Under the pieces are notes generated by a model. The model had not been told where the DNA came from and made no database searches. It saw only the letters and a program-made list of their open reading frames with translations. DNA of 64,000 nucleotides. It comes from Candidatus Hydrogenedentota bacterium. GTDB taxonomy: Bacteria > Hydrogenedentota > Hydrogenedentia > Hydrogenedentales > SLHB01. Where the stretch lies: positions 22,228 through 86,227 of the forward strand of contig BTWA01000028.1 in assembly GCA_045863295.1 (NCBI GenBank). The letters are read 5' to 3'. The translations under genes were made by a program, and so were the position numbers. Of the stretch, positions 41,218 to 59,433 are shown one piece after another (position 1 is the first letter of the stretch; the number at the start of each line of letters is the position of its first letter).

Positions 41218-42245
41218 GAAAGTCAGTCGGCTTGACAGGTTTCTTGGCTGTCTTGGTGGCAGGTACTATCGCCTGGGAACTGGCCACAACGGGTAGAACG
41301 ACCTTTCTCACAGCTGAGAATGGTAAGAATCTGCTGACGCTAGTTGGGCTTTACGGTATTTTGAGCCTCGGCCAGTCGATCGTCATTATCACCGGGGGTA
41401 TCGATCTTTCCGTCGGCAGTCTGGTTTGCCTTGCGGGGTCTTGCGCTGCTTTATGGATGGACAAGGGAGACGGGACTTCACCCTACATTGCTATCCCCGC
41501 GGTCCTATTCCTGTGCGCTGGCGTGGGCCTATGGCACGGCGTACTCATCACTAAAGCGCGCATGCAACCATTCGTGGTTACACTTTGCAGCCTTTTCTTC
41601 CTGCGTGGGTTTGCGCGGTTGATCACAGAGGACGGCACACAAGGGTTTGGCAGCGCGTTCGAAGGGTTGCGCTGGCTGGGCGGCGGTTCAATTTACGATC
41701 TTATTGGCGGCCGTGCCGACGGCATGGTACCCCCGCCCGAAAGTTTCATTCACATAGCCATGGACCTGATGCCTGCCTCGTTCCTGGTCATGTTGGTGCT
41801 GGCCTTGGTTCTTGGCCTTTACCTGCACCAGTCGCCGCAAGGACGGCACATATTTGCCCTTGGCGCCAATGAAGAGGCGGCCCGTTTCAGCGGAATTCGC
41901 ACGAACCGGCTCAAGTTGATCGCCTACATTGCATGTAGTCTGATATCCGGACTGGGTGGTTTGCTCATGGCATTCAAAAGTAACTCCATTCAGCCCTCCA
42001 ACTTCGGCAGCTTCTATGAGTTGTACGCCATTGCCGGCGCGGTTCTCGGTGGTTGCAGTCTGCGCGGAGGGTCGGGCGTAGTTGTGGGAGTTGTACTTGG
42101 CACCGCGATAATCCGCGTTTTGTACAATATGGTCAATTTGCTGAGCATCCCCAGTCAGTTGGAGTATGTTGTGATTGGTGGTGTAATCCTTGTGGGCGTG
42201 TTCGCCGATGAGGTATTTTCACAGCGGTCACGAACCGCACGTTAG
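41214..42245 (+). CDS. Sugar ABC transporter permease (RbsC-like)
   Basis: ITGGIDLSVGS, GANEEAARFSGI, YELYAIAGAVLGG; GTGA overlap. Confidence 0.9.
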   Translation: MRKSVGLTGFLAVLVAGTIAWELATTGRTTFLTAENGKNLLTLVGLYGILSLGQSIVIITGGIDLSVGSLVCLAGSCAALWMDKGDGTSPYIAIPAVLFLCAGVGLWHGVLITKARMQPFVVTLCSLFFLRGFARLITEDGTQGFGSAFEGLRWLGGGSIYDLIGGRADGMVPPPESFIHIAMDLMPASFLVMLVLALVLGLYLHQSPQGRHIFALGANEEAARFSGIRTNRLKLIAYIACSLISGLGGLLMAFKSNSIQPSNFGSFYELYAIAGAVLGGCSLRGGSGVVVGVVLGTAIIRVLYNMVNLLSIPSQLEYVVIGGVILVGVFADEVFSQRSRTAR

Positions 42246-42276
42246 AACCACGATCGACCGGATCGGACAGAGCCCT

Positions 42277-44529
42277 ATGTCGAATTACGAATACGCCGGA
42301 TACCTGAAATCCATCCTTTACGCTCCAGACCCGGGCGAAGCAGCCAGGGCGGAATCGGTTTTTTTCAGCGCGGACGACATCGCAAAGTGGAGCGTCAAGG
42401 ATTTTGACGTGGAAGCGGAGTGGAAGCGGATTCCAGTCCACCGATCGCGAACGGACCAGGGTGTCCGGTTGGTTGGCCGGTTTGAAGACGTCACCCGAAT
42501 TGATCTGGTGCCCAAAAATGCACCCCGCTTTTGGGTGCCCTTGGGAACGCTCAATCTTCAGGACAACCGCTTTCCCATTGATCTGAACTGGTACCCGATT
42601 CTTGAAGTAACCTACCGGTGCGCGAGCCCGAACGCAAGCCCGTGCTTGGCGTGGACGTATGCCGGAGGAAAGTGTTTGGAATCCCTGCCGGTTACTCAAG
42701 CGATGCGGACGGTGGTCAAGATGCTGCCTTGGAACGGCTTTCCCACTTTCCTGGACAAGCTCGTCTTGCGGCTGTACTCCAATTCCCGTACCACAGAGAC
42801 CCTTGAAGTTGAGTCTATTCGATTCCGCAAGTTGACGCCCGAAGAGCGGGAGGCTTGCGACCGCGATCTTGCCCGCCTGGATTCCACTCCTCGTCCGATG
42901 GCCAAGGAATGCTCGGCGTCGTTCTCGCCACTGGGCGTGACCATGAACGCGGACACGGTGCGCCGCAATGCCCAACTCCTGGGGGTATCGTTAGGCGAGT
43001 ATTGGGATCTGGCGATGGAGGACATCGTCCGTCATCACCACAATGCGGTCATTCTGGATCGAGCCCAGGAGTTGTCGGAACCGGAGTGGTCGGACTTGTT
43101 GTCGACCATGGCGCATCACGGGGTGCGGCTCGTACCTCAACTAAACTTGGACGTTGAGAATGAAGAGTACGTTCGGGAAGCGGTGGAGGCCTACGTCCGG
43201 CCACGAGCCGGCGACGATACCATTCTTGCGTGGCGAGTGAGCGGATGTGATGAAGACACGTCGTTGCACAAGCTGATCGCGCTCCGCAAACTGGTGGACG
43301 AGGCCGACTCGCGGCATCCGCTTGCCATTTGCACACGCGGAATCAACTCATATGCTGCTCTTGCTCCTCATTTTGATATCAGCGGAATCTCGTATGTCGA
43401 ATCGCATTCGCCGTGGCAGTTGGGCGAAGTGGTGCGCACTCACCAGCAATTGTGCAAGGGACAACAGTTCTGGCTCGACGGTCCGGCGTTCGTCTACGCG
43501 ACAGATACGCCGGAGTGGAGTACCTGCCCTGAAATGCGACTGATGGTAAATCTTGCATTTGCCAACGGCGCCCGTGGATGGTTTAGCCATGCATACTGCA
43601 ACGATCCGTTTTGGGTTACTGGCAGTTATCAAAGGACCTTAACCGGGCCCTTTCTCACGTTCAGCGACCTATGGCTGGAATTGGACCGGCGGATGGAGCG
43701 CCTCGCGGCAGTTACGCCGCTGCTGCTGGAAACCGAGCCTGCGTCTATTCCTCGATTGTGGTACGCCCAGAGTTCCATTGCCGAAGACAACTATAAATTG
43801 CCGGAGGGCATGGCGGCCGTAAGCTCTTACCGGCTCAAGGGTCCCGACTTCGACCTCTTTTTTGTGGTCAGCAATGACGTGCGCGGCATGTCCGCGCTGT
43901 ACGCCAACATTCCGCAGGATGCGTTAGAAGGGAATCAAATCTACGACCTGACTGACTTCATGCAAGAGCGGGTATGGAAGCCGATGAATCTTGAGCGCCA
44001 TTTGGAAATGTTTCCGGGGCAAGCGCAGGTGGTATTGCTGGGCCGGCCAGAAGTATGCGATCGGATTCACCACGTGGTGTCGAAGCACCTTATCAATGTG
44101 GATATGCAGCAATTAAATTTCTATTTGAAGATGGCACGCACCTATGGATTGGATATGGGGCCGGTCGAAGATCTCCTAAGCAAAGCTACAACCGGAGACA
44201 CGCTCATTGATCTGGCCATGACCGATCAGGCGCGCGACTTGTTGGTGGACATGATCTACAATACGCCGGACATCTTCCAACCCAGAAGCCATATTATTGA
44301 AATCAGCTCAGCCCTTTGCGCGTGCGACGGTGTCCTCTGCAGGATGATGAGCCGGGGCAAGGTGGAAGAAGCGATGGAATGGGGGCAGCGTGTAATTCCG
44401 CTGGCCCGTGAGGTGACGCGTTACCGCATTGAATTGCGGCGTGGGCTTGGTCACGACATCACCCCGCATACGGCGGATATAGTGAAGCGCACCCATTCAC
44501 TGCTCAATGAGTTACGAAATCTGCGGTGA
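42277..44529 (+). CDS. Large hypothetical protein, possible glycoside hydrolase-like barrel
   Basis: About 750-aa ORF without signal peptide; ILAW.V..DE and LAFANGARG patterns. Confidence 0.6.
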   Translation: MSNYEYAGYLKSILYAPDPGEAARAESVFFSADDIAKWSVKDFDVEAEWKRIPVHRSRTDQGVRLVGRFEDVTRIDLVPKNAPRFWVPLGTLNLQDNRFPIDLNWYPILEVTYRCASPNASPCLAWTYAGGKCLESLPVTQAMRTVVKMLPWNGFPTFLDKLVLRLYSNSRTTETLEVESIRFRKLTPEEREACDRDLARLDSTPRPMAKECSASFSPLGVTMNADTVRRNAQLLGVSLGEYWDLAMEDIVRHHHNAVILDRAQELSEPEWSDLLSTMAHHGVRLVPQLNLDVENEEYVREAVEAYVRPRAGDDTILAWRVSGCDEDTSLHKLIALRKLVDEADSRHPLAICTRGINSYAALAPHFDISGISYVESHSPWQLGEVVRTHQQLCKGQQFWLDGPAFVYATDTPEWSTCPEMRLMVNLAFANGARGWFSHAYCNDPFWVTGSYQRTLTGPFLTFSDLWLELDRRMERLAAVTPLLLETEPASIPRLWYAQSSIAEDNYKLPEGMAAVSSYRLKGPDFDLFFVVSNDVRGMSALYANIPQDALEGNQIYDLTDFMQERVWKPMNLERHLEMFPGQAQVVLLGRPEVCDRIHHVVSKHLINVDMQQLNFYLKMARTYGLDMGPVEDLLSKATTGDTLIDLAMTDQARDLLVDMIYNTPDIFQPRSHIIEISSALCACDGVLCRMMSRGKVEEAMEWGQRVIPLAREVTRYRIELRRGLGHDITPHTADIVKRTHSLLNELRNLR

Positions 44530-44699: not shown

Positions 44700-44891
44700 G
44701 TGCCGAAAGAAACCGGAAGTCGATCGGCGAAACCGTAGCCTTTCTGGTGCTTGGCAGGTGGACCGGGATGCCAATGCGGATGGCTGCGCGTACAAGCGAA
44801 CACGGTGGAAGTCCTGCTTGTCCCTAGCCAGATCCGAACTATGGAAAAGAAACTGCATTGGACGTTTCGAATGAGGAAGGAGCGTTGCGCG

Positions 44892-45683
44892 TTGCTTAGA
44901 ATTCCCTTAATCCTTTGGGTCGCCTTGGGGGCGCATTTCTGCGCATGGTCCCATGCGCAGGATATTCCAAATCTGGAATCCGGCACCCCTTCCGAGACCG
45001 CTGCCAGCCAGGAAGCCTCATCGTCCACCGACAATGCCGGTGCCGGTAGCGGATTTGAGGCCATGACCTTGATGGACATGATTCGTGCGGGCGGCGTGAT
45101 TTTGTACGCCATCATGGCGTTGAGTGTCTTTTCGCTGGTTATGGCCGTGTATTACCTGATTACCATAACGCCGGGCAGAGAGGCGCCTTCGTCGCTAATG
45201 AAACGCGCGGTAGCCCAGGTTCGTGCGGGGGATGTTCGAGGCGCATATCAAATGTGTGAGGAACGCGACGAACTGCTGGCGAATGTACTGCGGGCTGGAC
45301 TCAAGATGTATGGGCATGACCGTTTTGTGATCCAAGAGGCGATGGAGAGCGAGGGCGAACGCGGAGCCGCACAACTCTGGCAACGTATTTCCTATCTTAA
45401 CAATGTCGGCGCAATCGCACCATTGTTGGGCCTGTTGGGCACGGTGTGGGGCATGATGGGCGCGTTTGGAACCATCGCATTTAACAACACGGAATCTCGC
45501 GGCGAAGCAATGGCCTATAGCGTGGCGCAGGCCATGGTGACTACTGCCGCGGGCTTGATGCTGGCGATACCGGCTCTTCTCATCTACTACTATCTGCGAG
45601 GCCGTGTGGTCGCCATTGTGTGTTCGGTAGAATCATCTGCGACAGAGATGGTCGAACTACTGGCGCGGAGAAAAGAGGAATGA
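44892..45683 (+). CDS. MotA/TolQ/ExbB proton channel
   Basis: APLLGLLGTVWGM, AMVTTAAGL.LAIP; N-terminal signal/periplasmic extension. Start 44871 or 44892. Confidence 0.92.
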   Translation: MLRIPLILWVALGAHFCAWSHAQDIPNLESGTPSETAASQEASSSTDNAGAGSGFEAMTLMDMIRAGGVILYAIMALSVFSLVMAVYYLITITPGREAPSSLMKRAVAQVRAGDVRGAYQMCEERDELLANVLRAGLKMYGHDRFVIQEAMESEGERGAAQLWQRISYLNNVGAIAPLLGLLGTVWGMMGAFGTIAFNNTESRGEAMAYSVAQAMVTTAAGLMLAIPALLIYYYLRGRVVAIVCSVESSATEMVELLARRKEE

Positions 45684-46102
45684 ATTTTCGTAAGCACAGC
45701 GAGCATGAAGACAGCTCTCTCCAACTGGCACCGCTTATTGACATCGTCTTCTTGACGCTGGTGTTTTTCATGACAACCACGGTTTACTCCTCTCAAGAAC
45801 GCGAAGTGGACATTCAATTACCCACGGCGAGCACCTCTCAGCAAATTGAGCGGGCACGCGGCGAGATTTATATAAACATTCGAGAAGACGGACAGGTTGT
45901 CTTGAACAACCGCGAACTTACCCTCCCCGAATTGCAGGAAGTGTTATTTCAGGTGGCAGAGAGTTTTCCAGGCGGTTCGGTGATTGTTCGCGGCGACAGG
46001 CTTTCTCACTTGGGTGTGGCCCTTGGCGTATTGGACTGTTGCCGCAAAGCCGACATACAAAACGTGTCGTTTGCGGCAGTGCAGGATGAGTATGCGCAAT
46101 AA
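45680..46102 (+). CDS. ExbD/TolR
   Basis: APLIDIVFLTLVFFM with essential Asp; VIVRGD; ATGA overlap. Confidence 0.92.
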   Translation: MNFRKHSEHEDSSLQLAPLIDIVFLTLVFFMTTTVYSSQEREVDIQLPTASTSQQIERARGEIYINIREDGQVVLNNRELTLPELQEVLFQVAESFPGGSVIVRGDRLSHLGVALGVLDCCRKADIQNVSFAAVQDEYAQ

Positions 46103-48431
46103 ATTCGGCATTTGGGCGGCGACTGCCCTGATTTTCGCATCCGGGACAGTAGCGTCCTCCGCGCAGGATTCCGCTGAACAGGCCAAGATTGACGTGGCAA
46201 ACAGCTTCTTTGCGTACGGGTTTCACGATATTGCTGCCGAATCGTATCGCGAGTATTTGGATGCGTATCCAGAAGGTGCCTTTGCTACGGCTGCGTGGTA
46301 CCGGCTCGGTGAAAGCGAGTATAACGCGCGTCTATATGATTCCGCGCTGGCGGCGTTTGGCGAGTTGCTCAAGCGTGAGGTCGACACTGAGACAAGACTC
46401 CAAGCCACCCTACGGCGAGGCGAGATCCTCTACCGACTGGAACGACCGGACGAGGCTGTCCCTGTGCTCGAGTCTTTGGTGGGGCCCGACATTACAAGCG
46501 ATGTCCGGGCCGGGGCGTTGTACTACCTGGGCAAACTCCGATTTGACGGCGGCGATCCCGCGGCGGCCGCGAATGCATTGCAGATGCTCATCCAGGAAAT
46601 ACCAGAGACTCCCCTGGTTCCGTATGCCCGGTATCAGTTGGGCATGGTCCTACTGGCGCAGAATGCACTCGATTCTGCGGCGGCGGAATTCGCGGCGGTA
46701 TCAGCGTCAGATGCAGATTCCACGCTTCGAATGGAGAGTCTGTTTCGCGCGGCAGAAACCTACGATAGGCTCGGCTGGTTCGATGCTGCTGAAAAGACTT
46801 ACCGGCAACTGCAAACGGATTTCCCGGAATCCGTATACGCGGAACGGGCAGCGTACGGATATGCATGGGCTTTGTTTCACGCCGGCAAGTTTGATCAGTC
46901 TCGCGCGTCGGCCGCTGACTTTGCGAAGAAATACCCGCAATCCGAATTTGTCGCAGGAATGCGCTACCTGGAGGCCAATTGCGTTCAACAGTCCAAGGAC
47001 TACAACGCAGCGCTCGAACTGTATCAATCGGTGCAGGCGGACTTTCCAAAGTCTCCCTTTGCTCCGCGTGCGGCGCAGAAGGCCTGCTGGGTACTCTACT
47101 TGAGCGGCAAACGCGAAGAGTCCAAACAAGCTGTATCTGCTTTTCTAAATGCACATCGGGATACCGAACATGTCGGGGATGCGGCATTCTTGATGGGGCT
47201 GCTGCTCGCCGACGAAGGCCTGTTTGAGGGAGCCTTTCAAGAATTCCGGCTGGTTTCAGAGAAGTATCCGAACAGCGAATTTGCAGCGGACGCCTTGTAT
47301 AAAATGGGCGAGACCCTCTCGCAATTGCAGCGAATGGATGAGGCCGCCAAGGTTTTCAAAGCCTTCGCGCAACAGTATCCGGACAGCCCTTTGGCCGAGG
47401 ATGCGATACTGCGCGTGGGTGACGCCAAGTTTTTTGCGGCGTCATTCCAGGATGCGGTGAGCGAGTATAAGGCCATTTTGGCCGGTGCACCGGATCCGTA
47501 TAAAGAGGAAGAAACGCTGTACCGGCTGGCGATCACGTATCACAATATGCGCGATTTCAAGGCCAGTACCGACACATTTCGCACGATACTGGAGAAGTTT
47601 CCGGAGAGCCGCTATCGCGCCGAGGCGCGCGTGCGGATCGGCGACTATTTGGCGCGCGAAGGAAACGATCCCGTCAAGGCAGTGGAGTCGTACGAAGCCT
47701 CGCTTGCGATCGAACCCGACGGCGCGTACGCCGGGCGCGCCATGAAAGGCATCGCCCTGACCCGCTATGAGACCAAGGATTTGGACGGCGCAGCGGAGAT
47801 CTTCTTGCGCTTGATGAAGGAGTTTCCGGCGGAGAAATTGAATGAGCAGTCGTATCGCTGGACGGCGCAATACTTGCTCGACGCGCAGCGATGGGACGAT
47901 GCCATCACCGCGCTGAAAGCTTTACTGGAAGCATTTCCCGACTATCCAAATCCGGAACGCGTACGGCTCGAGATCGCAAAGTGCAACGAATTTGCCGGGC
48001 GGACGGACGAGGCGCTCGATCAATTCGAAGTGGTGGTAAAAGAAGCGCCGCGTAGTTCGTCGGCAGTCGAGGCCACCTACCGCGTGGCGCGGATACACGA
48101 GGATCGGAAAGACCTGGACAAGGCCTTGAAGTACTATGAAGAGGCTGCCAGCACCAATACGGGAGACACCGCAGCCCGCGCACGATTCCGGCAGGCAGAA
48201 CTGCTGGAACAACGCGAGAATTTCGAGGACGCGGCAAAGAGCTACTTGCTGGTTGCCATATTGTTTCTGCATCAGGAACTGTCGCCTGAATCGTTGATCC
48301 GCGCGGGACGTTGTTTTGAACAGGCAAACCGAATGGATCAGGCTCGAAAGGCGTATGAAGGGTTGGTCAAAGACTTTCCCGACAGCCCGCAGGCGGAAAA
48401 GGCCAAGGCTCGTTTGACTGAGTTGGGTTGA
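46086..48431 (+). CDS. Periplasmic multi-TPR protein (CpoB/YbgF-like repeats)
   Basis: Signal peptide, many TPRs with YP.S/FP.S turns; overlaps exbD. Confidence 0.85.
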   Translation: MSMRNKFGIWAATALIFASGTVASSAQDSAEQAKIDVANSFFAYGFHDIAAESYREYLDAYPEGAFATAAWYRLGESEYNARLYDSALAAFGELLKREVDTETRLQATLRRGEILYRLERPDEAVPVLESLVGPDITSDVRAGALYYLGKLRFDGGDPAAAANALQMLIQEIPETPLVPYARYQLGMVLLAQNALDSAAAEFAAVSASDADSTLRMESLFRAAETYDRLGWFDAAEKTYRQLQTDFPESVYAERAAYGYAWALFHAGKFDQSRASAADFAKKYPQSEFVAGMRYLEANCVQQSKDYNAALELYQSVQADFPKSPFAPRAAQKACWVLYLSGKREESKQAVSAFLNAHRDTEHVGDAAFLMGLLLADEGLFEGAFQEFRLVSEKYPNSEFAADALYKMGETLSQLQRMDEAAKVFKAFAQQYPDSPLAEDAILRVGDAKFFAASFQDAVSEYKAILAGAPDPYKEEETLYRLAITYHNMRDFKASTDTFRTILEKFPESRYRAEARVRIGDYLAREGNDPVKAVESYEASLAIEPDGAYAGRAMKGIALTRYETKDLDGAAEIFLRLMKEFPAEKLNEQSYRWTAQYLLDAQRWDDAITALKALLEAFPDYPNPERVRLEIAKCNEFAGRTDEALDQFEVVVKEAPRSSSAVEATYRVARIHEDRKDLDKALKYYEEAASTNTGDTAARARFRQAELLEQRENFEDAAKSYLLVAILFLHQELSPESLIRAGRCFEQANRMDQARKAYEGLVKDFPDSPQAEKAKARLTELG

Positions 48432-48453: not shown

Positions 48454-50220
48454 ATGTCCGATAAGCGAACCATCTTGATTGCCAGCGTCACGATATCCAT
48501 CGTGGCTCACGGCCTATTGTTGATTGCCGCGCCCCATGTAGACATGTTGGGGGCAAGCGCCTCGCCGGTGCCTCGACGACCGCTGATTCATGTGCAGTTG
48601 GTCGATGATGTACTTGCGCGCAATATGCCGGGCGATAGCGATGATTCTCTCCGTAATCTCGCGACAAGGCCCGGCACCATCGCGGATTTGTTATCGCAAC
48701 AAACCGAGACTCTGACACCTTCAAATCCGGCCCGGGTGGAGATTCCAAGGTTGACCGAACGCATTGTCCAGGATCCACTCCCTCTGCCCCCGTCGCCAGA
48801 GACGGATGAGGGTGTGTTGCGGCAGTTTGACAGTAAGATTATTGAGATCTCCGAGTCTCTAGCACGTGAAAATGTCGAAGTCGCCCGCCGACTTGTGCAA
48901 CCTGGCTTAGACCGAATTGTCGCGACGGACGAAGACCCCGTATTGCGCACGCCTGCAACTGAAATGGTGGATGAAGTCTTATTCATCGATCCGTTGAAAC
49001 CCGGCATCGGCCTGGAAGGACCGGGTGGGACTGTCAAAGGTGAGACTGGGAGCGATATGGATCGCCTATTGGAATATCCGGCCAAGCTGGAACCCATCCC
49101 TGAAGCATTAGAACCGGTTACAACCTTGCCTGAATTGCCCGTGGATCGTGACGTCGTTAGGTCGCGGGTAATGGAAAACGTGAAGCAGGAACGCCAATAC
49201 GTGGCGATGGACGAATTTGTGGAGATGCGTCTGGACGCGTTTATTCCCCCAGGCGAAAAGGAGGGATTCTTCCGCCTTCGAATTGTCCCCAAGGACGGAA
49301 ATGCGCTTGAAGCACTACCCAAAGACGTGACGTTTGTCATCGACGCGTCGAGCAGCATCCTTCAACGCAAGTTGGATGAGACTGTTGCCGGTGTGGGTAA
49401 ACTGGTGAATGGGCTAAAGGCCGACGATCGCTTCAACGTCGTTGTCTTTCGTGACAATCCATCGCAATTTCACACGGCGCCGGTAGCAGCCACACCTGAG
49501 AACAAGAAAGCGGCATTGGAATTCATCGGCGGTTTGCAAGCACGTGGAGAAACGGACATCTATCAGGCCATGCAACCCGCGATATTAACGCCTCCACGCA
49601 ACGGGATCCCGGGCATTGTACTTGTCATGTCCGATGGACGCCCCACAAAAGGCATCAAGGATGGGCGAGAGATCATTAACGCACTGACCCAGGAGAATGC
49701 ATTGAGGAACAGCATATTCGCTTTTTCTGGCGGACGCACCGTGAATCAATTCATGCTTGACTTGCTTGCCTACCGCAATAAGGGCGAGTGCAAAGTAGTG
49801 CCTCAAGTGGAAAGCATGGCCAGCGAGATGCAATCGTTTTTCGGCCAACTCTCGGACCCTCTGTTGGTAAACTGCAAAGCGGATTATGGCCGCATCGACG
49901 AGGATTCTGTATTTCCTAAAAATTTGCCGGATTTCTACCGCGGCCAGGCGGTCACAATTTATGGACGGTTTGATCCCACGCAGGATCATTCCATTGCCGT
50001 TCGACTTTCGGGCGTTGCGGGCGATGTTAAGAAGGAAGCTGCGTTCGCCGCCGATTTGCGGCAGGCGCAATCGGGCGATGCGGAAATCGCTCGCATGTGG
50101 GCGTTTCGAAAGATTTATGATTTGATTGGTGAAATTGTGCGCCAGGGAGAAGACCCCAAATTGTTGACCGAATTGCGTGAACTCGGCCGCACCTACAATA
50201 TTCGAACCAGTTACGATTAG
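48454..50220 (+). CDS. Membrane-anchored VWA-domain protein with TonB-like SxxxH anchor
   Basis: SIVAH TM helix, Pro-rich linker, MIDAS DASSS..GETD..MSDG. Confidence 0.8.
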   Translation: MSDKRTILIASVTISIVAHGLLLIAAPHVDMLGASASPVPRRPLIHVQLVDDVLARNMPGDSDDSLRNLATRPGTIADLLSQQTETLTPSNPARVEIPRLTERIVQDPLPLPPSPETDEGVLRQFDSKIIEISESLARENVEVARRLVQPGLDRIVATDEDPVLRTPATEMVDEVLFIDPLKPGIGLEGPGGTVKGETGSDMDRLLEYPAKLEPIPEALEPVTTLPELPVDRDVVRSRVMENVKQERQYVAMDEFVEMRLDAFIPPGEKEGFFRLRIVPKDGNALEALPKDVTFVIDASSSILQRKLDETVAGVGKLVNGLKADDRFNVVVFRDNPSQFHTAPVAATPENKKAALEFIGGLQARGETDIYQAMQPAILTPPRNGIPGIVLVMSDGRPTKGIKDGREIINALTQENALRNSIFAFSGGRTVNQFMLDLLAYRNKGECKVVPQVESMASEMQSFFGQLSDPLLVNCKADYGRIDEDSVFPKNLPDFYRGQAVTIYGRFDPTQDHSIAVRLSGVAGDVKKEAAFAADLRQAQSGDAEIARMWAFRKIYDLIGEIVRQGEDPKLLTELRELGRTYNIRTSYD

Positions 50221-50278: not shown

Positions 50279-51994
50279 TTGCAGACTATTCACGAAGTCC
50301 CACTACATCCAGTCTCCGGATGGATTTCGGCGCTCGCGCAACCAACATTACGCGTACGCCATCAATTCGAATCTGTATGGGGAGGCGACGAGGAAGTCCT
50401 GCATGGCCGCTTGCGACAAGTTCAAAACGCATTGGGTCTCTTTCTCGAACGGTATGGAAATCTGCCGGTCGTTATAGTCCGGTGCCCAGGCCGGATTAAC
50501 CTGCGCGGCATGCATGTCGACACCCACGGCGGCTATCTAAATCTGGTTACTCATCATCGGGAAGCCGTAATCGTTGCATCTCCGACGGAAAATCGGCGTA
50601 TCGAAGTCTGTAATGCGGATGCCACCTATGATCCTGTTGCGTTTGATATGGATGATTCCTGCGTTCCGAAGGGGCACCGTTGGTATTCGTTTATTACATC
50701 CGATGAGATTCGTCAGCGATTAGCAGAGCGCCCGGGATTCTGGGGGCACTATCTGGAAGGCGCGGCTCTTCGCATGCAATACGGTCAGCCGGAAAGGCCG
50801 ATCCGCGGAATGCGGGCAGTCGCTGCAAGTGACATCCCCTGCGGCGCTGGACTCAGCTCATCCACCGCGCTAGTTCTCGCCACCTTGGGCGCGCTTATGC
50901 ATGTGAACGAAGTCGTGTGGAGCCCGAGCGAAACCATTCTCGCCGCCCGCGATAGTGAATGGTACGCAGGTGCGCGCATTGGTGTCAGCGATCAGGCGGC
51001 CATGGTATTGGGCGGCCGCAACAGGCTTTACCATGCGGCGCTTTACGCGGAAGCCCGATCGGCTGACAGTCACGAGGAACCAGCCCTCGAAATCCGCAAT
51101 AGCCGGCATTGCGAATTGCCCGGTGACATGGCCATCCTTGTAGTCAATTCACGTACGAGACGCCACTTGAGCGGTGCGGCCTTGGTTGAGTACACGCAAA
51201 ACCGGTTTGCTTACTCCATGGCGCTCGAAATCCTTCGGCAGGAAATGACACGCGCCGGCGTGGACGCGGAAATTGCCAATCGCTACAACCGCCTTTCCGC
51301 GTTTGATGTAGATGGCCTTGGCATGATCGGCGGCATTTCGAAATTGTACAGCTTGCTAACCGCGGTTCCTCGTTACATCAGCGTTTCCCAGTTGGAATGT
51401 AAGTATCATCTGCCTCGCCTGAATGGCCTGTATATGCAGGCATTTGGTATGTTGCCCGAGCAGTCCCGCCCCACGAACATAAATTTACGTGGACCGCTGT
51501 TATTCGGAATTGCCGAGTCCGAGCGGGCACGCCTTTTCTTTGGCGCGGCTGCCAACCGGGACTGGACGGCCGCCGGTCAATGGATGTCTCTCGGCCACGA
51601 TGGAGACCGGCGCTACGATAGCCTGGGGCTACCTTGGAATTGGGACTGTACGGACTCCCTTATGGAAGCTCTCCAACAGAACGCCACCCCATTGGCCACC
51701 TGCCCCGGACGGTATGGGGCAAGCAGCCGGTTTCTGGACGGTCTGGTGGATGCGGCTATGGAGGCGGGCGCACTGGGGGCATGCCTAACTGGTGCGGGAA
51801 TCGCCGGAAGTGTAATTGCGCTTGTCCGCGCCCAAGAAGTGAATACGGTTGCGGACTGCCTTCGCCGGACCATGGCATCAACCGAATATGCCGCATGGTG
51901 TGGTGGACAGGTGCCCTTGGAAACGGCTGATCTGGCTGATTCCGTTGTTGTAAACCATGCCACGGAAGGCCTTTGCGCCCTACAGGTGCCCTGA
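50279..51994 (+). CDS. GHMP sugar kinase, galactokinase-like (divergent)
   Basis: PGRINLRGMHVD, IPCGAGLSSS, SDQ, LTGAGIAG. Confidence 0.8.
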   Translation: MQTIHEVPLHPVSGWISALAQPTLRVRHQFESVWGGDEEVLHGRLRQVQNALGLFLERYGNLPVVIVRCPGRINLRGMHVDTHGGYLNLVTHHREAVIVASPTENRRIEVCNADATYDPVAFDMDDSCVPKGHRWYSFITSDEIRQRLAERPGFWGHYLEGAALRMQYGQPERPIRGMRAVAASDIPCGAGLSSSTALVLATLGALMHVNEVVWSPSETILAARDSEWYAGARIGVSDQAAMVLGGRNRLYHAALYAEARSADSHEEPALEIRNSRHCELPGDMAILVVNSRTRRHLSGAALVEYTQNRFAYSMALEILRQEMTRAGVDAEIANRYNRLSAFDVDGLGMIGGISKLYSLLTAVPRYISVSQLECKYHLPRLNGLYMQAFGMLPEQSRPTNINLRGPLLFGIAESERARLFFGAAANRDWTAAGQWMSLGHDGDRRYDSLGLPWNWDCTDSLMEALQQNATPLATCPGRYGASSRFLDGLVDAAMEAGALGACLTGAGIAGSVIALVRAQEVNTVADCLRRTMASTEYAAWCGGQVPLETADLADSVVVNHATEGLCALQVP

Positions 51995-52908: not shown

Positions 52909-54150
52909 TTGAACGTGCTGTTCGCAAAACCCACCAAGGCAATAGGCCTCGATGTCGGGACGCATTCCGTAAAGGCCGTCCAGATGTCCAAGGCGAGTGG
53001 TCGCTTACGCGTTGAACGCGTAGGGTACGCCTTGATTGATCGAGGCGAGTTCAACCTCGATCCGGTTCGTGCCCAGGCAATGGCTGTTCGAGAAGCATTG
53101 CGCGTTATCCCCACCAATCAATCTATTGTACTGGGCGCTCTGCCCGGCCAAACAGTTGTCATACGTTATCCCCGGCTACAAGATCTGCCCGACAATCAAT
53201 TGTCAGCGGCGGTAGAGAAAGAGGCGGGGCAAAATATCCCTTATGAATTGTCGGAAGTATTTCTTGACTGGTCGCCCCTCGCGAAAATCACCGAAGGCAA
53301 CAAGACCCTTAACAAAGTATTGTTGGTGGCGGCTCGATACGAAATTATTGACTCGCGTGTGCAAGTGGCGGAAGAGGCTGGAATTCAGTTTTCCACGTTG
53401 GGTGTGGACAGCCTGGCACTTGCGGACGCGGCGGAAGCGTGCGACTTTCTACGCGTGGGCGAATCGGTTGCCATGGTCAACCTGGGCAGTTCGAGCACCA
53501 GTATTCATTTTGTGAAAGACGGCGTCTCGAATTTCATCCGAGACGTAAACTGGGGTGCGCGCGAGTTGCTACAGGCCATTATGAAAGCGCGCCGGTGCGA
53601 ATTTGCGGAGGCGGAACGTCTGCTTCAGGCGAGCAGTGTGCCGGAGCCGATTCCAGCCCCGCCCCCGCTTCCAGGGCAAAGCGCTCCGGAGTCCGCGGAA
53701 CCGGAAAAGCCGGCCGCGCCTTCGGGTGGAAATTTGCTGGACCCCTTGGATGATGAATTGGGTGCGTTGGGGGCTCTGGGGGATTTGGCGGCCGAACCCG
53801 CACCGGCAGCCGCACCCACGAAACCGCAGCCGCAAGAAAAGTCGATAGACGAACTTATTTCTCTTCCCCTGGCCAAGCTGGTCAGCGAGTTGCGCCGCTC
53901 TTTTGACTATTACGAGCAGCAATTGTACGAACAGCCGGTGGATCGGCTGATTCTGAGCGGAGGTTCCGCCGAATTGCCGCTGGTGCACAACATGCTTGCG
54001 GAAGAATTGAGCATACCGGTTGAAGTGGCCGATCCTTCGCAAAGCGCGATATACCTGAACGAGGAGTCGCAGGTGTATCCGATGTTGGAGCATCCACCGC
54101 AGTTTATGGTTGCGGTGGGGCTCGCAGCGCGTGGAGTGGCAGAACTATGA
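52909..54150 (+). CDS. pilM: Type IV pilus assembly protein PilM
   Basis: IGLDVGTHSVK actin-like fold, VLLVAA, RRSFDYY, ILSGG, VAVGLAAR. Confidence 0.93.
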   Translation: MNVLFAKPTKAIGLDVGTHSVKAVQMSKASGRLRVERVGYALIDRGEFNLDPVRAQAMAVREALRVIPTNQSIVLGALPGQTVVIRYPRLQDLPDNQLSAAVEKEAGQNIPYELSEVFLDWSPLAKITEGNKTLNKVLLVAARYEIIDSRVQVAEEAGIQFSTLGVDSLALADAAEACDFLRVGESVAMVNLGSSSTSIHFVKDGVSNFIRDVNWGARELLQAIMKARRCEFAEAERLLQASSVPEPIPAPPPLPGQSAPESAEPEKPAAPSGGNLLDPLDDELGALGALGDLAAEPAPAAAPTKPQPQEKSIDELISLPLAKLVSELRRSFDYYEQQLYEQPVDRLILSGGSAELPLVHNMLAEELSIPVEVADPSQSAIYLNEESQVYPMLEHPPQFMVAVGLAARGVAEL

Positions 54151-54818
54151 TTCGCATCAATCTGCTTCCCCATCACCTGCGTCCCATCAAGCGGACTCCG
54201 TTGCCGTACATCTTGAGCGGTGCGGTGTTGGTTGTGGCGGTGCTTGCGGTGGCAAGCAACTTCATTGCGATTCGCGCTCAGTTGGCCTCCAAACAGGGCC
54301 AATTGCAGAACTATCAGGCGGAATTGGACGAATTGGATGCAATCATCAAGGAATCAGACCGTCTGGAAAGCCTGAAAGTGGGCTTGGCGGAAAAGATTGC
54401 CACGATCGATGAGATTGTGCGCGACCGCATTATCTGGTCGCGTGAGTTATATAACCTGAGCCGTTTGCTTCCCAAGAACATGTGGTTTCGCCGGGTGGAA
54501 GTGACGAAACGATCGTTTACCGAGCGGGTACCTGATCTGGATCCCAAGGGCATGCCTAAAGTGGATCCGAATACAAAGCAACCGATAATGAAAGAGATAC
54601 GTCGTGACCGGCCAATCCTGCGGGTATCGGGTTATGTCACGGATACGATTACAGGATCGGATGATTTGACGCCGTTCATTGCCAATGTCTCGGACGATTC
54701 GGAATTCACCGCGCGCTTCACGTTGGAACCGCCGGAACTGGGCAGCACGACGTTTGAGGGATTTGAAGTGAATTCGTTCTCTCTGGATTTCCTGATTGAA
54801 GAAGGAGGGAACCAGTGA
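54147..54818 (+). CDS. pilN: Type IV pilus assembly protein PilN
   Basis: IRINLLP motif, TM helix, coiled coil, LPKNMW. Confidence 0.9.
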   Translation: MIRINLLPHHLRPIKRTPLPYILSGAVLVVAVLAVASNFIAIRAQLASKQGQLQNYQAELDELDAIIKESDRLESLKVGLAEKIATIDEIVRDRIIWSRELYNLSRLLPKNMWFRRVEVTKRSFTERVPDLDPKGMPKVDPNTKQPIMKEIRRDRPILRVSGYVTDTITGSDDLTPFIANVSDDSEFTARFTLEPPELGSTTFEGFEVNSFSLDFLIEEGGNQ

Positions 54819-55426
54819 TGTTCGATTCCATGAAAGGAACGGTTACCCGGAACGACTGGATTGCGGTGGGCGTCGTGTTGGCGATTACCGTCGCCATCGT
54901 GGCGGGTTATTGGTTTGGCGTTCGCGGAAAGCAGTTGCAGCAGATTACTGACATCGACACGAAGATTGCGACGGTGGAAAAGGATCTTCGCGAAGCGCAG
55001 GAGAAGCAGAAAAACATTGCCAAGCTCCGCGAAGAGACCGACAAGATCAACCGGCTGGTTTCGGATTTCGAGAAAAGACTACCTTCCGAGCGCGAAATCC
55101 TGGGTTTGGTAGGCACGTTTGAGCAATTCGCATTTCAAGTGAGCCTTCGCCACCAGTTGAAGCCGGAAACGCCCGTGAAAGACGAACGCAAGGAAACGAT
55201 TCCCTATAGCGTGACGGTGTGGGGCGATTTCCACCAGATCGCGAGTTTTATCAACCGCCTGGAGCGGTATGAACGGTATTTGAAAGTGTCCAACCTTTTG
55301 ATAGAGCAACAGGAAGCGGGCCTTTCCAAGGCGACCTTTACGTTAAGTACGTTCCGATTTCTGGGCAAGGCGGCCACGCCGGTCCCGCAAACGGCGGCTG
55401 CTCCCGCGGCGGGAGTCGCCCAATGA
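54815..55426 (+). CDS. pilO: Type IV pilus assembly protein PilO
   Basis: TM helix, coiled coil, LPSEREI, GDFHQIASF..LE..R; operon position. Confidence 0.88.
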   Translation: MMFDSMKGTVTRNDWIAVGVVLAITVAIVAGYWFGVRGKQLQQITDIDTKIATVEKDLREAQEKQKNIAKLREETDKINRLVSDFEKRLPSEREILGLVGTFEQFAFQVSLRHQLKPETPVKDERKETIPYSVTVWGDFHQIASFINRLERYERYLKVSNLLIEQQEAGLSKATFTLSTFRFLGKAATPVPQTAAAPAAGVAQ

Positions 55427-56064
55427 GCCGGGAACAGAAGAGCCAGACACCCAAGTATGTTGCGCTGGGCGTTTTAGGTGTTGCGGCGCTCGGGATTCTG
55501 GGATACCAGATGATGAACATGATGCCCGCCGCGCCCCCTCCGCCGCCTGCCGATGCGAATGCGGCGTCCGCCGAGGCCACGCCCGGTGCGCCAGCCAGCA
55601 CGGCGCCCGCGGCAGGATCACCTGCGGCAGGATCGCCGGCGGCCCAGACGGTGCAGTCCCGTTTTCAACGATCAAATGTCAATCTCGACGAGTTGATTGC
55701 GAAGATTCAAGACATTGACTTTGACTATGACGTAGACAAGGTGGACGTCGATCCGTTTCGTCCGTTGGTCGGCCCCATGGCGCCGGCGCAATTCGCGGTA
55801 CAGACCGGCACGTCCGGTCCGGGCCTTGGCGCGATGGAGTTGTTCCTTCGCAGTGTGTCGGTCACGGGAATCATCATGAATCCGAACCGGCCGCTGGCGG
55901 TCGTGAATTACCGCGACATGGCGACCAATCAGGACGCCTCCGAAGTAGCTTACATCGGCTTCATGTTCCCGAACACGGGCGTGTACGTTGAAGATATCAA
56001 GCCAGAGAGAATCGTCCTCAGGGCAAACGACATAGCGGTTCCCATTGAGTTAAAGGAGCGGTAG
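55423..56064 (+). CDS. PilP-like protein (TM-anchored)
   Basis: DPF motif, VTGII..P.AVV; located between pilO and pilQ; no Cys. Confidence 0.65.
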   Translation: MSREQKSQTPKYVALGVLGVAALGILGYQMMNMMPAAPPPPPADANAASAEATPGAPASTAPAAGSPAAGSPAAQTVQSRFQRSNVNLDELIAKIQDIDFDYDVDKVDVDPFRPLVGPMAPAQFAVQTGTSGPGLGAMELFLRSVSVTGIIMNPNRPLAVVNYRDMATNQDASEVAYIGFMFPNTGVYVEDIKPERIVLRANDIAVPIELKER

Positions 56065-56067
56065 GCG

Positions 56068-59000
56068 ATGCGTCATATCCCACGACTCAGCAGTATGCTG
56101 GCGTTGCTCGTGATTGGCGCCGCAACGGTGTTCCCCGTAGACGCGGCAGAGCCACTCGATCAACGAAAACGCGAATTGCTGGAGACCAGCCTTATGAAGC
56201 AGGGCCAGACCCTGAGCAGGCCGGTGCTCATGGACTCCGCGCAGCGGGCCGCCGCCATCACGGGACTGACATTTACGGACGATCCGGATCGCCCTGCCCT
56301 GGCGATTCAGGTTGAAGGGGACGCACCGTATACCTGGTTCCACCTTAACGACGGCAAACGGTTTGTTTTAGACCTTCACAATACAATCAATCTCGAGTCG
56401 GGCCGTGTAATCAAGACGGAATCCCAATCGGCGGTGCGCGAGGTTCGCACGAGCCTGTTCGCGTTTGAGCCGCAGTTTGTTTCGCGAGTGGTGGTGGAGG
56501 CCTCAGCCCCGCTCCAACCGGCCTTTGTCAAAGAGAACGGCCTTCTTCGCGTCGAACTGACCGTAAACGGTAGCAGCGAGTCAAGCCGCCTCGCTACCCT
56601 ATTGGACTTGCAGGAACAGGAAGTACTGGCCGCAAAATCCCGTATGGCTGAAGCTGGCCGGCGTGCCGCGGCCGAACGCGATCGCATGGATGTCCGGTTG
56701 TCGGCGGTTTCCACGTCCGGAAAAGAATCGCTGAGTTCGGTGGAAACCGAATTTGAAAAGCAGTTTGCGTCCATATCGAAGATGTTGGACGAAACGGCAT
56801 CTCTGGCGCTGGACCGCGTTGCGGCGTGCAAATCAAAGGCTGACGAAATCGAAAGCCGGATGGCATCCGGGCAGGTGACGGAAAGTGCCGGGGCCGATGC
56901 GTTGCGCGCACTGCGTGAGGGCGCCCTCGCTGAACACAAGAAGACAGTGGGCGCGTTGAAATCACATGATCGTGCATTGAAAGTGGCCACCGACCGTTTG
57001 AGCAACAAGCTGGACATCATTGCAAAGAACGTGGAAACGAGTACGGAGTTCGCAACGACGGAGCCTGTACTTGCATCTCTGGATATCGAGAAGGTCGAGG
57101 TCGCACCCGATGCTCAGGCGTCGATTCATGTTGACATGACGGTGATGGGCCCGCCCGCGCCAATGCAAATGGCCGCCGCGGCCGTACCGTACGGCCCCTG
57201 GATACCGTTGTCTGCCGCAGGCGAACAACAGCCCCAGACGGACGAAGAGAAAAAAGAATTTGATTCCATGCGCAGCCTCTTTGACAGCCTGAACGAAGGC
57301 GATCAAGGCGTGGCAGCGCCTGCGCCCGAAGGCGAGCCAGCCCCGGTAGACGACCCGGCGCCCACCGAAGATTCCGCGCCTGATAATTCAAAGACCGACG
57401 TTGTCGCGCCTGCGCCGACTATTGTGGAACCGGCCCCGGCCGACCGCGCTCCCGATGCGGAGCCCGAAGTGAAAGTAGCTCCGGAAGCCGCGCCTCAATC
57501 CACTCAACCGGTGGACGAACAACCCGCACCAGAGGCCCCCGCGGCCGATGCGCCTTCGGCCCCGGTGGAAGCGGCGCCGGTTATCGCGGAGGAGCCCGTA
57601 GTCGCAGCAGTGGACACCGAAACTCAAGCACCCGAGGCTGAAACCGTGGAAGCGGCCGCGCCGCAATCCGATACGGCAACACCGGCGGACGAATCGGCTG
57701 CCGCGGAACCGGCGGCAGTGGAAGAAACCCCTTCGGAAGAAGCGGCCGCGCCGGAATCCCCCACTCCGGTCTCTGAACCTTCGGGTTTGCGCGTTGAAAT
57801 GAATGTGGAACCGAGTGCGCCGGCCGCGCCGCCGGCAACTCCTGCCGCGAGCGCACCCATCGTCATGCCAGCGGTTGTACAATCGGAAGGCAGCCGCGAT
57901 GCGCTGGACACAATAGTCGATGTCGTCGACTTCCGCGACATGGACCTGAAGGAAGTGGTGCCGCTGCTCGCTGAAGCAGCCAACGTGAACGTAATTGCAG
58001 GCGCCGACGTTGTTGGAACGGTAAATTTCCGTGCTCGCAATGTGACATTGCGTCAAGCGCTGGAAACCGTGCTCAATATCAACAATCTCGGCCTGGTCGA
58101 AGACAAGGGCATTTTCCGCGTCGTTCCCCGGGCGGATGCGTTGGCCGCGCACCGCGTGACCCGCATGGTGCCTTTGGTCAATGGCAAGGCGGAAGCGGTG
58201 AAGCAGACGTTGGATGCAGTCGTAATCGGATCGCCGGACGCGGAGTTGGTGACGGTGGCGGCCAACGCGGCGACAAACGTCATCGTGCTTGCGGGCGTCA
58301 AAGACCGTGTGGACGAATTTGAACAACTGGTCCGGCAACTGGACGTGACGGAGCCGGAGTTGCCGACCGCCACGGAAGCGCTAAAACTGAACTACCTGGA
58401 TCCGACTGAGGCCAAGACGATTGTGACTTCGATGTTGACGCCCGAAATCGGCAAATCCGAAGCGGACGTGCGGGGCCGTCACATCATCGTCACCGACCAA
58501 CCGATGGTGGTGGAGCAGATTCGGGCCGTACTGAAGAGCATTGACACGCCTACCAAGCAGGTCAGCATTGAGGCCATGATTATTGACGCGATTCTGCGCG
58601 ACTCCGCGCAAACCGGCGTGGACTGGACCATAGAAGCGTTGCGCCGGTTCAGTACGAACGGCGATCTCGTCAGCGACGTATCGCAACTGCAGTTCGACGG
58701 CAACCTCGGTAACGTTGGATCGGGTGATTTGGATGCAGGCATTCTTACGCTGGGTCTCTTGACCAGCGAGGTTCGAGTGCAGGCCGCGATTGCCGCGGAA
58801 GTGGCAAACAACAACGCGCAGATTCTGGCGAATCCCAGCGTAGTCACGTTGGAGAACAAGCCAGCGACCATTAGCATCGTGCAAGAATTTCCGTATCAGG
58901 AAATTACACAAGGTCTGACGGGCCCGCCCGTAGCCTCGACCGAGTTCAAGCCCATTGGCGTGTCCCTCGATGTAACTCCTGCGGTCACCCATGACAATGA

Positions 59001-59433
59001 CATTATCGTCGAGATTCTGGCCAAGCAAAGCTCGGTGAGCGGTGTGACCGATACGGGAGTGCCCATCGAAGACAAGCGCGAAGCGGATACCACGTTGCGC
59101 ACCCAGAACGGCCAGACGGTGTTTATCGGCGGTCTGCGCCGCATCGATGACGTGCTAGGCGTATCGAAAGTGCCTGTGCTGGGTGATATCCCGGTAATCA
59201 ACTTCATGTTCCGGAACACGACGTCGGAGAAGACGAATACGGAGTTGCTGATATTCCTCACCTGCAATGTGAAGGAACCGGCCCTGCCGAATCTGACGAC
59301 GACGGAGCAATACGAGTACGACAAGTTGGATGCGACTCCCAAGGTGCCGGATGCGCAACGGCAAATGTACAAGGATTACGTGAAGCCTCATACCACACGC
59401 GACCCGCTGTGGAAATGGCGTCGAACGAACTAG
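56068..59433 (+). CDS. pilQ: Secretin PilQ with AMIN-like domain and long acidic linker
   Basis: RFVLDL (AMIN-like), DFRDMDL (N0), QVSIEAMI, ILANPSVVTLEN, KVPVLGDIP..FMFR, ELLIFLT. Confidence 0.92.
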   Translation: MRHIPRLSSMLALLVIGAATVFPVDAAEPLDQRKRELLETSLMKQGQTLSRPVLMDSAQRAAAITGLTFTDDPDRPALAIQVEGDAPYTWFHLNDGKRFVLDLHNTINLESGRVIKTESQSAVREVRTSLFAFEPQFVSRVVVEASAPLQPAFVKENGLLRVELTVNGSSESSRLATLLDLQEQEVLAAKSRMAEAGRRAAAERDRMDVRLSAVSTSGKESLSSVETEFEKQFASISKMLDETASLALDRVAACKSKADEIESRMASGQVTESAGADALRALREGALAEHKKTVGALKSHDRALKVATDRLSNKLDIIAKNVETSTEFATTEPVLASLDIEKVEVAPDAQASIHVDMTVMGPPAPMQMAAAAVPYGPWIPLSAAGEQQPQTDEEKKEFDSMRSLFDSLNEGDQGVAAPAPEGEPAPVDDPAPTEDSAPDNSKTDVVAPAPTIVEPAPADRAPDAEPEVKVAPEAAPQSTQPVDEQPAPEAPAADAPSAPVEAAPVIAEEPVVAAVDTETQAPEAETVEAAAPQSDTATPADESAAAEPAAVEETPSEEAAAPESPTPVSEPSGLRVEMNVEPSAPAAPPATPAASAPIVMPAVVQSEGSRDALDTIVDVVDFRDMDLKEVVPLLAEAANVNVIAGADVVGTVNFRARNVTLRQALETVLNINNLGLVEDKGIFRVVPRADALAAHRVTRMVPLVNGKAEAVKQTLDAVVIGSPDAELVTVAANAATNVIVLAGVKDRVDEFEQLVRQLDVTEPELPTATEALKLNYLDPTEAKTIVTSMLTPEIGKSEADVRGRHIIVTDQPMVVEQIRAVLKSIDTPTKQVSIEAMIIDAILRDSAQTGVDWTIEALRRFSTNGDLVSDVSQLQFDGNLGNVGSGDLDAGILTLGLLTSEVRVQAAIAAEVANNNAQILANPSVVTLENKPATISIVQEFPYQEITQGLTGPPVASTEFKPIGVSLDVTPAVTHDNDIIVEILAKQSSVSGVTDTGVPIEDKREADTTLRTQNGQTVFIGGLRRIDDVLGVSKVPVLGDIPVINFMFRNTTSEKTNTELLIFLTCNVKEPALPNLTTTEQYEYDKLDATPKVPDAQRQMYKDYVKPHTTRDPLWKWRRTN

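Follow-up and report, generated by a model that had tools for sequence, protein, structure and literature searches.

A candidate ExbB/ExbD-coupled envelope transducer with an ITIH-like VWA head in Hydrogenedentota

A four-gene cassette and its surroundings

The window analysed here, a 64,000-nucleotide stretch of a Candidatus Hydrogenedentota genome, contains a tightly packed run of genes in the order exbB-exbD-TPR-VWA. The VWA gene is the last of the run and encodes a candidate transducer. The features of the locus are listed below.

44841..45683, + strand: exbB/tolQ-like motor subunit (PF01618, E 1.5e-29), with TM1 Ser95 at 45123-45125
45680..46102, + strand: exbD/tolR-like subunit, single copy (PF02472, E 2.2e-21), with Asp21 at 45740-45742
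46092..48431, + strand: 779-aa TPR protein with CpoB/YbgF-like repeats (TPR_6, E 7.6e-59; TIGR02795)
48454..50220, + strand: candidate VWA-bearing transducer, 588 aa, ATG to TAG, arranged as anchor, linker and VWA
48463..48537, + strand: its N-terminal helix, residues 4-28, with S11, S15-x3-H19 (48496-48510) and P27 (block pLDDT 83-97; conservation)
48538..49200, + strand: its linker, residues 29-249, of which about 100-165 (48751-48948) form a conserved helical stretch (model mostly of low confidence; conservation)
48586..48606, + strand: D-box/motor-box-like strand, residues 45-51, with an alternating hydrophobic pattern at 45-49
49201..50217, + strand: ITIH-like head (VIA-align, Foldseek and hmmsearch against ITIH)
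Residues about 250-287 and 469-540, + strand: hybrid beta-sandwich within the head, enclosing the inserted VWA domain
Residues 288-468, + strand: VWA domain inserted in the hybrid domain, with DxSxS at 49342-49356, T367 at 49552-49554 and D394 at 49633-49635
Residues 541-588, + strand: C-terminal helices of the head
50279..51994, + strand: galactokinase-like GHMP kinase, 571 aa, a frequent downstream neighbour (below all NCBIfam cut-offs)

The start codon of exbB is uncertain (44841 or 44871), and the start of exbD overlaps the exbB stop. Thr201 and Thr235 of ExbB were found in 57/57 orthologues and Asp21 of ExbD in 61/61; judged from their sequences, the motor residues of the cassette appear intact. 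The N-terminus of the TPR protein is signal-peptide-like, a lipobox-like pattern occurs in just 2 of its 61 orthologues, and the protein is probably soluble and periplasmic. The N-terminal extension of ExbB (44841-45100) also resembles a signal peptide with a conserved Ala-Gln end, and a variable acidic/Pro spacer separates it from TM1.

The order exbB-exbD-TPR-VWA, with one exbD, was conserved in all 54 Hydrogenedentota loci (of 80) that have at least 4.5 kb upstream. We observed the same order and a single exbD in 35 of 36 metagenome loci, the 36th having its motor genes just downstream; these are the 36 loci with enough flank among 80 found with the distant alignment, and 9 of them are Hydrogenedentota-like by TPR score. 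The genes flanking the cassette vary among loci while the cassette itself stays fixed. No gene for an outer-membrane partner, TolB, Pal or a receptor lies within the cassette, and promoter and terminator scans there gave chance-level results.

Among the surrounding genes, a 779-aa ORF at 42190-44529 matched nothing in Pfam or NCBIfam at E 0.1. A pilMNOPQ-like operon is found downstream (52909-59433), and its 1121-aa secretin carries a helical insert and a long acidic Pro/Ala-rich stretch before the STN domain. A tie between this operon and the cassette was ruled out by its occurrence in 0/40 relatives' loci. Furthermore, ftsZ lies upstream of the cassette in 19/42 and a pilT-like gene in 13/42 relatives' loci (L083:1940-3322, L095:4141-5244 and related ones), yet the ftsZ/pilT-like pair of the source genome sits on another contig (C46), away from the cassette; the hint at cell division is therefore weak.

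The head domain and the linker

The initial annotation had presented a VWA domain with an intact MIDAS as the terminal domain of the protein. Pfam VWA_3/VWA/VWA_2 matched residues 291-448, and the MIDAS is complete (D297-A-S299-S-S301, T367, D394), with its D, S, T and D present in 150/150 homologues and S301 in 149/150. The VWA assignment thus stands, but the domain is not alone. Two AlphaFold2 models (mean pLDDT 74 and 80, head blocks mostly >90) place it within a beta-sandwich that is followed by helices, forming a folded head of about residues 250-588 that exceeds the VWA domain. The best VIA-align match was ITIH1 (Z 26.5, rmsd 3.1, 324 aligned, model 256-588 on 266-607), the best Foldseek matches were ITIH heavy chains (E 3e-23), and hmmsearch matched ITIH4 (E 2e-38). 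In the published description of ITIH1, residues 266-607 correspond to Hybrid1, vWFA and helices, an arrangement compared there to that of integrin beta chains; ITIH1 is further described as binding several ligands without its MIDAS and as self-associating through it (PMC7170535). The same core fold is found in a Catenulispora VWA protein (4fx5, Z 25.4) and in archaeal ArnB (8s05, Z 24.3). As these two are nearly as close as ITIH1, the head fold alone indicates no function.

ITIH1 (6FPY), ITIH4, bacterial VIT-VWA proteins (TIGR03788) and the integrin beta headpiece all share with the present protein a VWA-in-hybrid arrangement, helices and a full MIDAS, whereas ITIH and VIT-VWA proteins possess a VIT/Hybrid2 sandwich in the place taken here by the anchor and linker. 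VIT (PF08487) gave no Pfam match in the 588-aa protein and is present in the VIT-VWA paralogues of relatives' genomes; the VIT-VWA protein of one relative is 26% identical to the head region over 334 aa. The simplest history would be the fusion of a VIT-VWA head to a TonB-type anchor. The protein has no TonB_C, TonB_2 or TolA C-terminal domain that Pfam or NCBIfam matched at E 0.1. No conserved acidic C-terminus that could serve as a MIDAS ligand was found in the TPR protein, ExbB or ExbD of the cassette.

The linker had been described as Pro/acidic. Both peptides quoted for this are present, but the linker is just moderately Pro-rich, partly conserved and about 220 aa long (median 222 in homologues, range 208-237). 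Residues 31-245 comprise 12% Pro, 18% D/E, 11% K/R and 31% large hydrophobic residues, and the linker is therefore not a low-complexity spacer of the TonB type. Residues 111-165 are conserved, with a mean top-residue share of 0.55 vs 0.25-0.28 for residues 51-70 and 166-225, and the stretch at about 100-165 was modelled by AlphaFold2 as low-confidence helices. No strands were predicted by AlphaFold2 in residues 29-245, and an Atlas search with residues 1-250 returned nothing >0.81 and no named family for the linker. The D-box-like strand sits about 17 residues past the anchor helix. Its first five positions (45-49) show the alternating hydrophobic pattern known from the TonB D-box (PMC10907165) in 117/119 homologues, and all seven positions are satisfied in just 62/119.

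The anchor helix and its predicted contact with ExbB

The protein contains a single hydrophobic segment (residues 7-25, Kyte-Doolittle 2.4), and SIVAH at residues 15-19 is the sole SxxxH anywhere in its 588 aa, in agreement with the single N-terminal transmembrane helix first proposed. The corresponding His is described as essential in the anchors of TonB and TolA. As a control, SxxxH was found within an N-terminal hydrophobic segment in 9/1132 ORFs of the genome (0.8%), the set being ORFs of at least 250 aa with a hydrophobic N-terminus, spurious ORFs among them. Three of these nine are the VWA protein itself, one TolA-like and one TonB-like protein.

Among the best 120 of 279 homologues, S15 is retained in 89 and H19 in 100, and both occur together in 83 of the 117 scorable rows of close homologues. 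H19 is substituted in 35 of 150 close homologues, by Tyr in 33 and by Asn and Phe in one each. In distant homologues, the N-terminal helix carries SxxxH in 82/95 full-length matches across phyla; these were unselected lower-ranked matches of a profile search (106 rows, 95 full length) whose scoring profile includes the helix. This count is preferred to that of alignment A2, where His and MIDAS are present in 49/49 sequences hand-picked from matches whose N-termini had already been seen. A count of 20/36 from metagenome loci was discarded, as start codons had been set too far upstream and Hydrogenedentota loci were mixed in. The motif is thus conserved across phyla but not invariant. Furthermore, the second half of the SHLS motif (Leu, Ser) is missing: position 26 is Ala or Ser, position 30 is variable, and the full S-x3-H-x6-L-x3-S motif of TonB/TolA is not satisfied by the family. 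In the description of Ton proteins, the L and S of SHLS are the less conserved residues (PMC12215075). Taken with the D-box-like strand and the motor genes of the cassette, SxxxH in 82/95 distant matches argues for the TonB/TolA-type anchor that the initial annotation had proposed.

Net charge was higher on the N side of the helix in 69/107 homologues and lower in 14, a bias that fits an N-in topology with a periplasmic rather than a cytoplasmic head. We also considered that the helix is a cleaved signal peptide that releases a soluble periplasmic ITIH-like protein. A small-x-small pattern is present at the helix end (residues 24-26) in 94/117 close homologues, and related VIT-VWA proteins in the same genomes have signal-peptide-like N-termini. 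However, Pro at +1 blocks signal peptidase I, and Pro is the next residue in 89 of those 94 homologues. The pattern was not retained in distant homologues, and a conserved mid-helix His within a 20-residue hydrophobic run is atypical of signal peptides. Cleavage of the anchor is therefore unlikely, and a soluble protein of this kind seems very improbable.

The probable periplasmic placement of the head also bears on whether the protein could serve a MoxR AAA+/Bat-type chaperone system as an ATP-driven VWA adaptor, a role for which it would be out of reach of a cytoplasmic ATPase. MoxR-VWA/Bat systems are characterized by linked MoxR AAA+ and DUF58 genes. In agreement with the claim that no AAA+ ATPase is linked to the gene, a MoxR-like match was found in 1/80 Hydrogenedentota loci, on the opposite strand and about 8 kb away. 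The source genome holds several MoxR-like genes elsewhere, off the cassette locus, and 8/80 metagenome loci have a MoxR gene downstream, 5 of them together with DUF58 and 4 with BatA-like genes, but these loci (L111, L113-L118, L120) form one metagenome clade and their MoxR operons have VWA genes of their own. We regard such an adaptor as highly unlikely.

In E. coli, the Ser and His of the anchor contact ExbB Ser34/Trp38 or TolQ Ser28/Trp32, the His-Ser contact being known from cryo-EM (PMC12215075). In a profile of the cassette ExbB, Ser95 is aligned to Ser28 of E. coli TolQ, and the His-contacting Trp of ExbB/TolQ is not kept. In 56 paired Hydrogenedentota loci, we found His with Ser in 23, His with Gly in 10, Tyr or Phe with Gly or Ala in 23, and Tyr or Phe with Ser in none. 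For covariation with residue 19, column 96 of ExbB comes first and column 95 second among 223 ExbB column states. Once kinship is corrected for on a tree, 4 independent pairs remain on supported branches; none runs in the opposite direction, but the sign test is not significant (p 0.5), and the covariation is therefore a lead rather than a proof. A Fisher p of 3e-8 for the same covariation was rejected as standalone evidence, since kin are not independent. Outside Hydrogenedentota, the His and the ExbB TM1 Ser occurred together in 28/28 scorable loci (29 examined).

The Tyr/Phe lineages (L042, L049, L055, L057, L059, L075 and others) always carry Gly/Ala-Phe at ExbB 95-96. This combination may represent a natural variant of the contact described as essential in Ton/Tol.

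Substitution of the His in 35/150 close homologues and the lack of a conserved ExbB Trp would also suit a passive membrane-anchored scaffold or MIDAS oligomer that passes no force and in which the Ser/His helix is vestigial or an assembly contact, as would the MIDAS-mediated self-association of ITIH1 (PMC7170535). We consider such a scaffold decidedly unlikely: the motor residues are invariant, the cassette is fixed across phyla and holds no other transducer, the His is found with Ser in 28/28 distant loci, and the D-box-like strand is retained.

Distribution, proposed mechanism and related systems

The VWA transducer gene was found in 92/94 Hydrogenedentota genomes, with a single match in 90. 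Distant members occur in Omnitrophota (5 of 10 looked up) and in Kiritimatiellia and Phycisphaeraceae (1 each of 10), and one distant cluster is dominated by Lentisphaerota. In comparison, TonB-dependent receptors (PF00593) were matched in 12/41 Hydrogenedentota genomes, and the source genome (96% complete) has neither a PF00593 receptor match nor a TonB_C match.

TolA-TolB, Pal-CpoB and further ExbBD genes are encoded at separate loci of the source genome. A role for the VWA protein as a stand-in for TolA was ruled out since the genome has TolA-TolB and Pal, so that the cassette constitutes a further machine of housekeeping-like character. Tol-Pal is split in this genome, with tolA-tolB on C5 and pal-cpoB on C9. 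In this genome, which gave no PF00593 match, an arginine-biosynthesis cluster contains a second exbB-exbD pair (C8:4231-6552); behind the pair come a TonB-like gene with SxxxH and one encoding a small membrane protein that has two CxxC motifs. In addition, an exbB-exbD-exbD set without adjoining transducer was found at C35:18445-20005, and an orphan TonB_2-domain protein is encoded on another contig (C11:121083 onward).

The GHMP kinase gene lies downstream of the cassette in 40/53 Hydrogenedentota loci, and its cluster held just 5/80 metagenome loci; it is probably not part of the motor machine. This sugar-kinase-like neighbour, the Ton-like anatomy of the protein and the need for another uptake route in the majority of genomes, which lack PF00593 receptors, could point to a motor-docked importer, pulling polymers or polymer-loaded periplasmic proteins through a non-classical outer-membrane channel. 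We take the mucin-uptake locus MUL1 of Akkermansia, which presumably holds TPR, VWA and ExbB/ExbD genes, as a possible parallel; mul1A is described as a mucin transport gene. However, no channel or glycan-binding gene lies within the cassette, the kinase link largely vanishes outside Hydrogenedentota, and a single-copy core distribution is unlike that of substrate-specific transporters. An importer thus appears unlikely.

We propose instead that the VWA protein is an inner-membrane, N-in transducer coupled to the ExbB/ExbD motor encoded upstream. By inference from Ton/Tol structures, the S15/H19 face of the anchor would pack on ExbB TM1 at Ser95, the ExbD dimer would receive the strand at residues 45-51, and the linker would be wound or shortened by proton flow. 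Through Mg2+, the head could grip an envelope protein of the periplasm or outer membrane at an acidic residue, and the motor would then pull the bound head inward. The TPR protein may guide or adapt the linker or the target, by analogy with GltG on GltD (PMC11761067).

Docking to the motor is probable, because the cassette is fixed (54/54 and 35/36 loci), SxxxH occurs in 82/95 distant matches vs 0.8% of control ORFs, the D-box pattern is found in 117/119 homologues, and the His accompanies the ExbB Ser in 28/28 distant loci. The account as a whole, combining motor coupling, MIDAS grip and an envelope role, is somewhat favored over its alternatives taken together. Counting against it, His19 is replaced in 35/150 close homologues though described as essential in TonB/TolA, the Leu/Ser of SHLS are absent and the ExbB/TolQ Trp is not kept, 10 loci keep the His without the ExbB Ser, the full D-box is present in just 62/119 homologues, and the cassette lacks a gene for an outer-membrane partner. 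As for the job of the machine, a housekeeping envelope task such as the assembly, remodelling or release of a component is most likely, ahead of receptor-based nutrient uptake, given presence in 92/94 genomes of the phylum vs 12/41 for TonB-dependent receptors.

The transducer shares with TonB/TolA and their ExbBD/TolQR motors the S-x3-H anchor, a D-box-like strand, a long linker, the essential Asp and Thr of a cognate motor and a CpoB-like TPR neighbour. Conversely, TonB and TolA possess a TonB_C or TolA C-terminal domain and the Leu/Ser half of SHLS, and they bind by beta-strand addition where a metal bridge is proposed for the VWA head. The protein would therefore work like TonB/TolA but is not a member of these families. 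In Myxococcus, the Agl-Glt gliding machinery combines a TolQR-like motor (AglRQS), a TonB-like arm (GltG) predicted along the periplasmic TPR protein GltD, and a VWA adhesin; there, the VWA domain belongs to a separate surface lipoprotein (CglB), and GltG keeps a TonB-like C-terminal domain (PMC11761067). No Glt-like outer-membrane genes were seen within the VWA cassette.

The closest precedent is a class of vWA force transducers proposed from genome analysis by Williams-Jones et al. (2025, Mol Biol Evol 42:msaf138, PMC12204202, section 8). As described there, these proteins carry an SHLS helix, a motor box, a disordered linker and a vWA domain, and are encoded beside TPR, tolQ and two tolR genes; the type locus, in Tichowtungia aerotolerans, is a prediction, with no phenotype known. 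Both families thus have a Ser/His TM helix, a motor box, a disordered linker, a vWA C-terminus, and TPR and tolQ/tolR-like neighbours. According to the same description, the present family differs by its single exbD, where the PVC type loci have, not strictly, a heterologous pair of tolR, by one transducer per locus vs two at the Tichowtungia type locus, by a linker of about 220 aa vs about 100 aa, and by its ITIH-type head of VWA, hybrid and helices, where PMC12204202 compares its fold with YfbK. Furthermore, Hydrogenedentota and Omnitrophota lie outside the phyla listed in section 8 of that paper, and 'hydrogenedent' appears nowhere in its main text; a Kiritimatiellia member of the present family does exist. 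We therefore regard the cassette as a distinct version of the class predicted in 2025, set apart from the Tichowtungia transducers by the published description rather than by sequence. A search of the literature outside subscription journals found PMC12204202 as the only paper treating such a system, and no experimental paper; 'Willebrand' is not mentioned in the available text of a 2026 review (PMC12905483).

A more speculative extension of the proposed transducer, to which we give a small chance, is a bacterial integrin-like clutch driven from inside, in which motor tension would toggle MIDAS affinity so that the head grips under load and releases on relaxation. In integrin beta chains, force and hybrid swing-out tune MIDAS affinity at the hybrid domain, and it is at the hybrid domain that the linker of the present protein enters the head. 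On this reading, Hydrogenedentota would possess the clutch as a core machine of their envelope, members also occurring in Omnitrophota, Lentisphaerota, Kiritimatiellia and Phycisphaerae, and some lineages may have re-tuned the contact between anchor and motor from His/Ser to Tyr/Gly.

For a long time, no systems other than Ton and Tol were known to use ExbBD/TolQR arms in envelope work. A third kind of arm was proposed in 2025, and the VWA family is a well-defined four-gene version of it. Its near-universal, single-copy presence in Hydrogenedentota and its spread over several other phyla suggest a basic cellular job. The natural Tyr/Gly pairs, the pairing of His19 with ExbB Ser95, the D-box-like strand and the MIDAS make sharply testable features of this machine. 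If true, the clutch would tie the motors of bacterial envelopes to the mechanical behaviour of adhesion receptors in animals.
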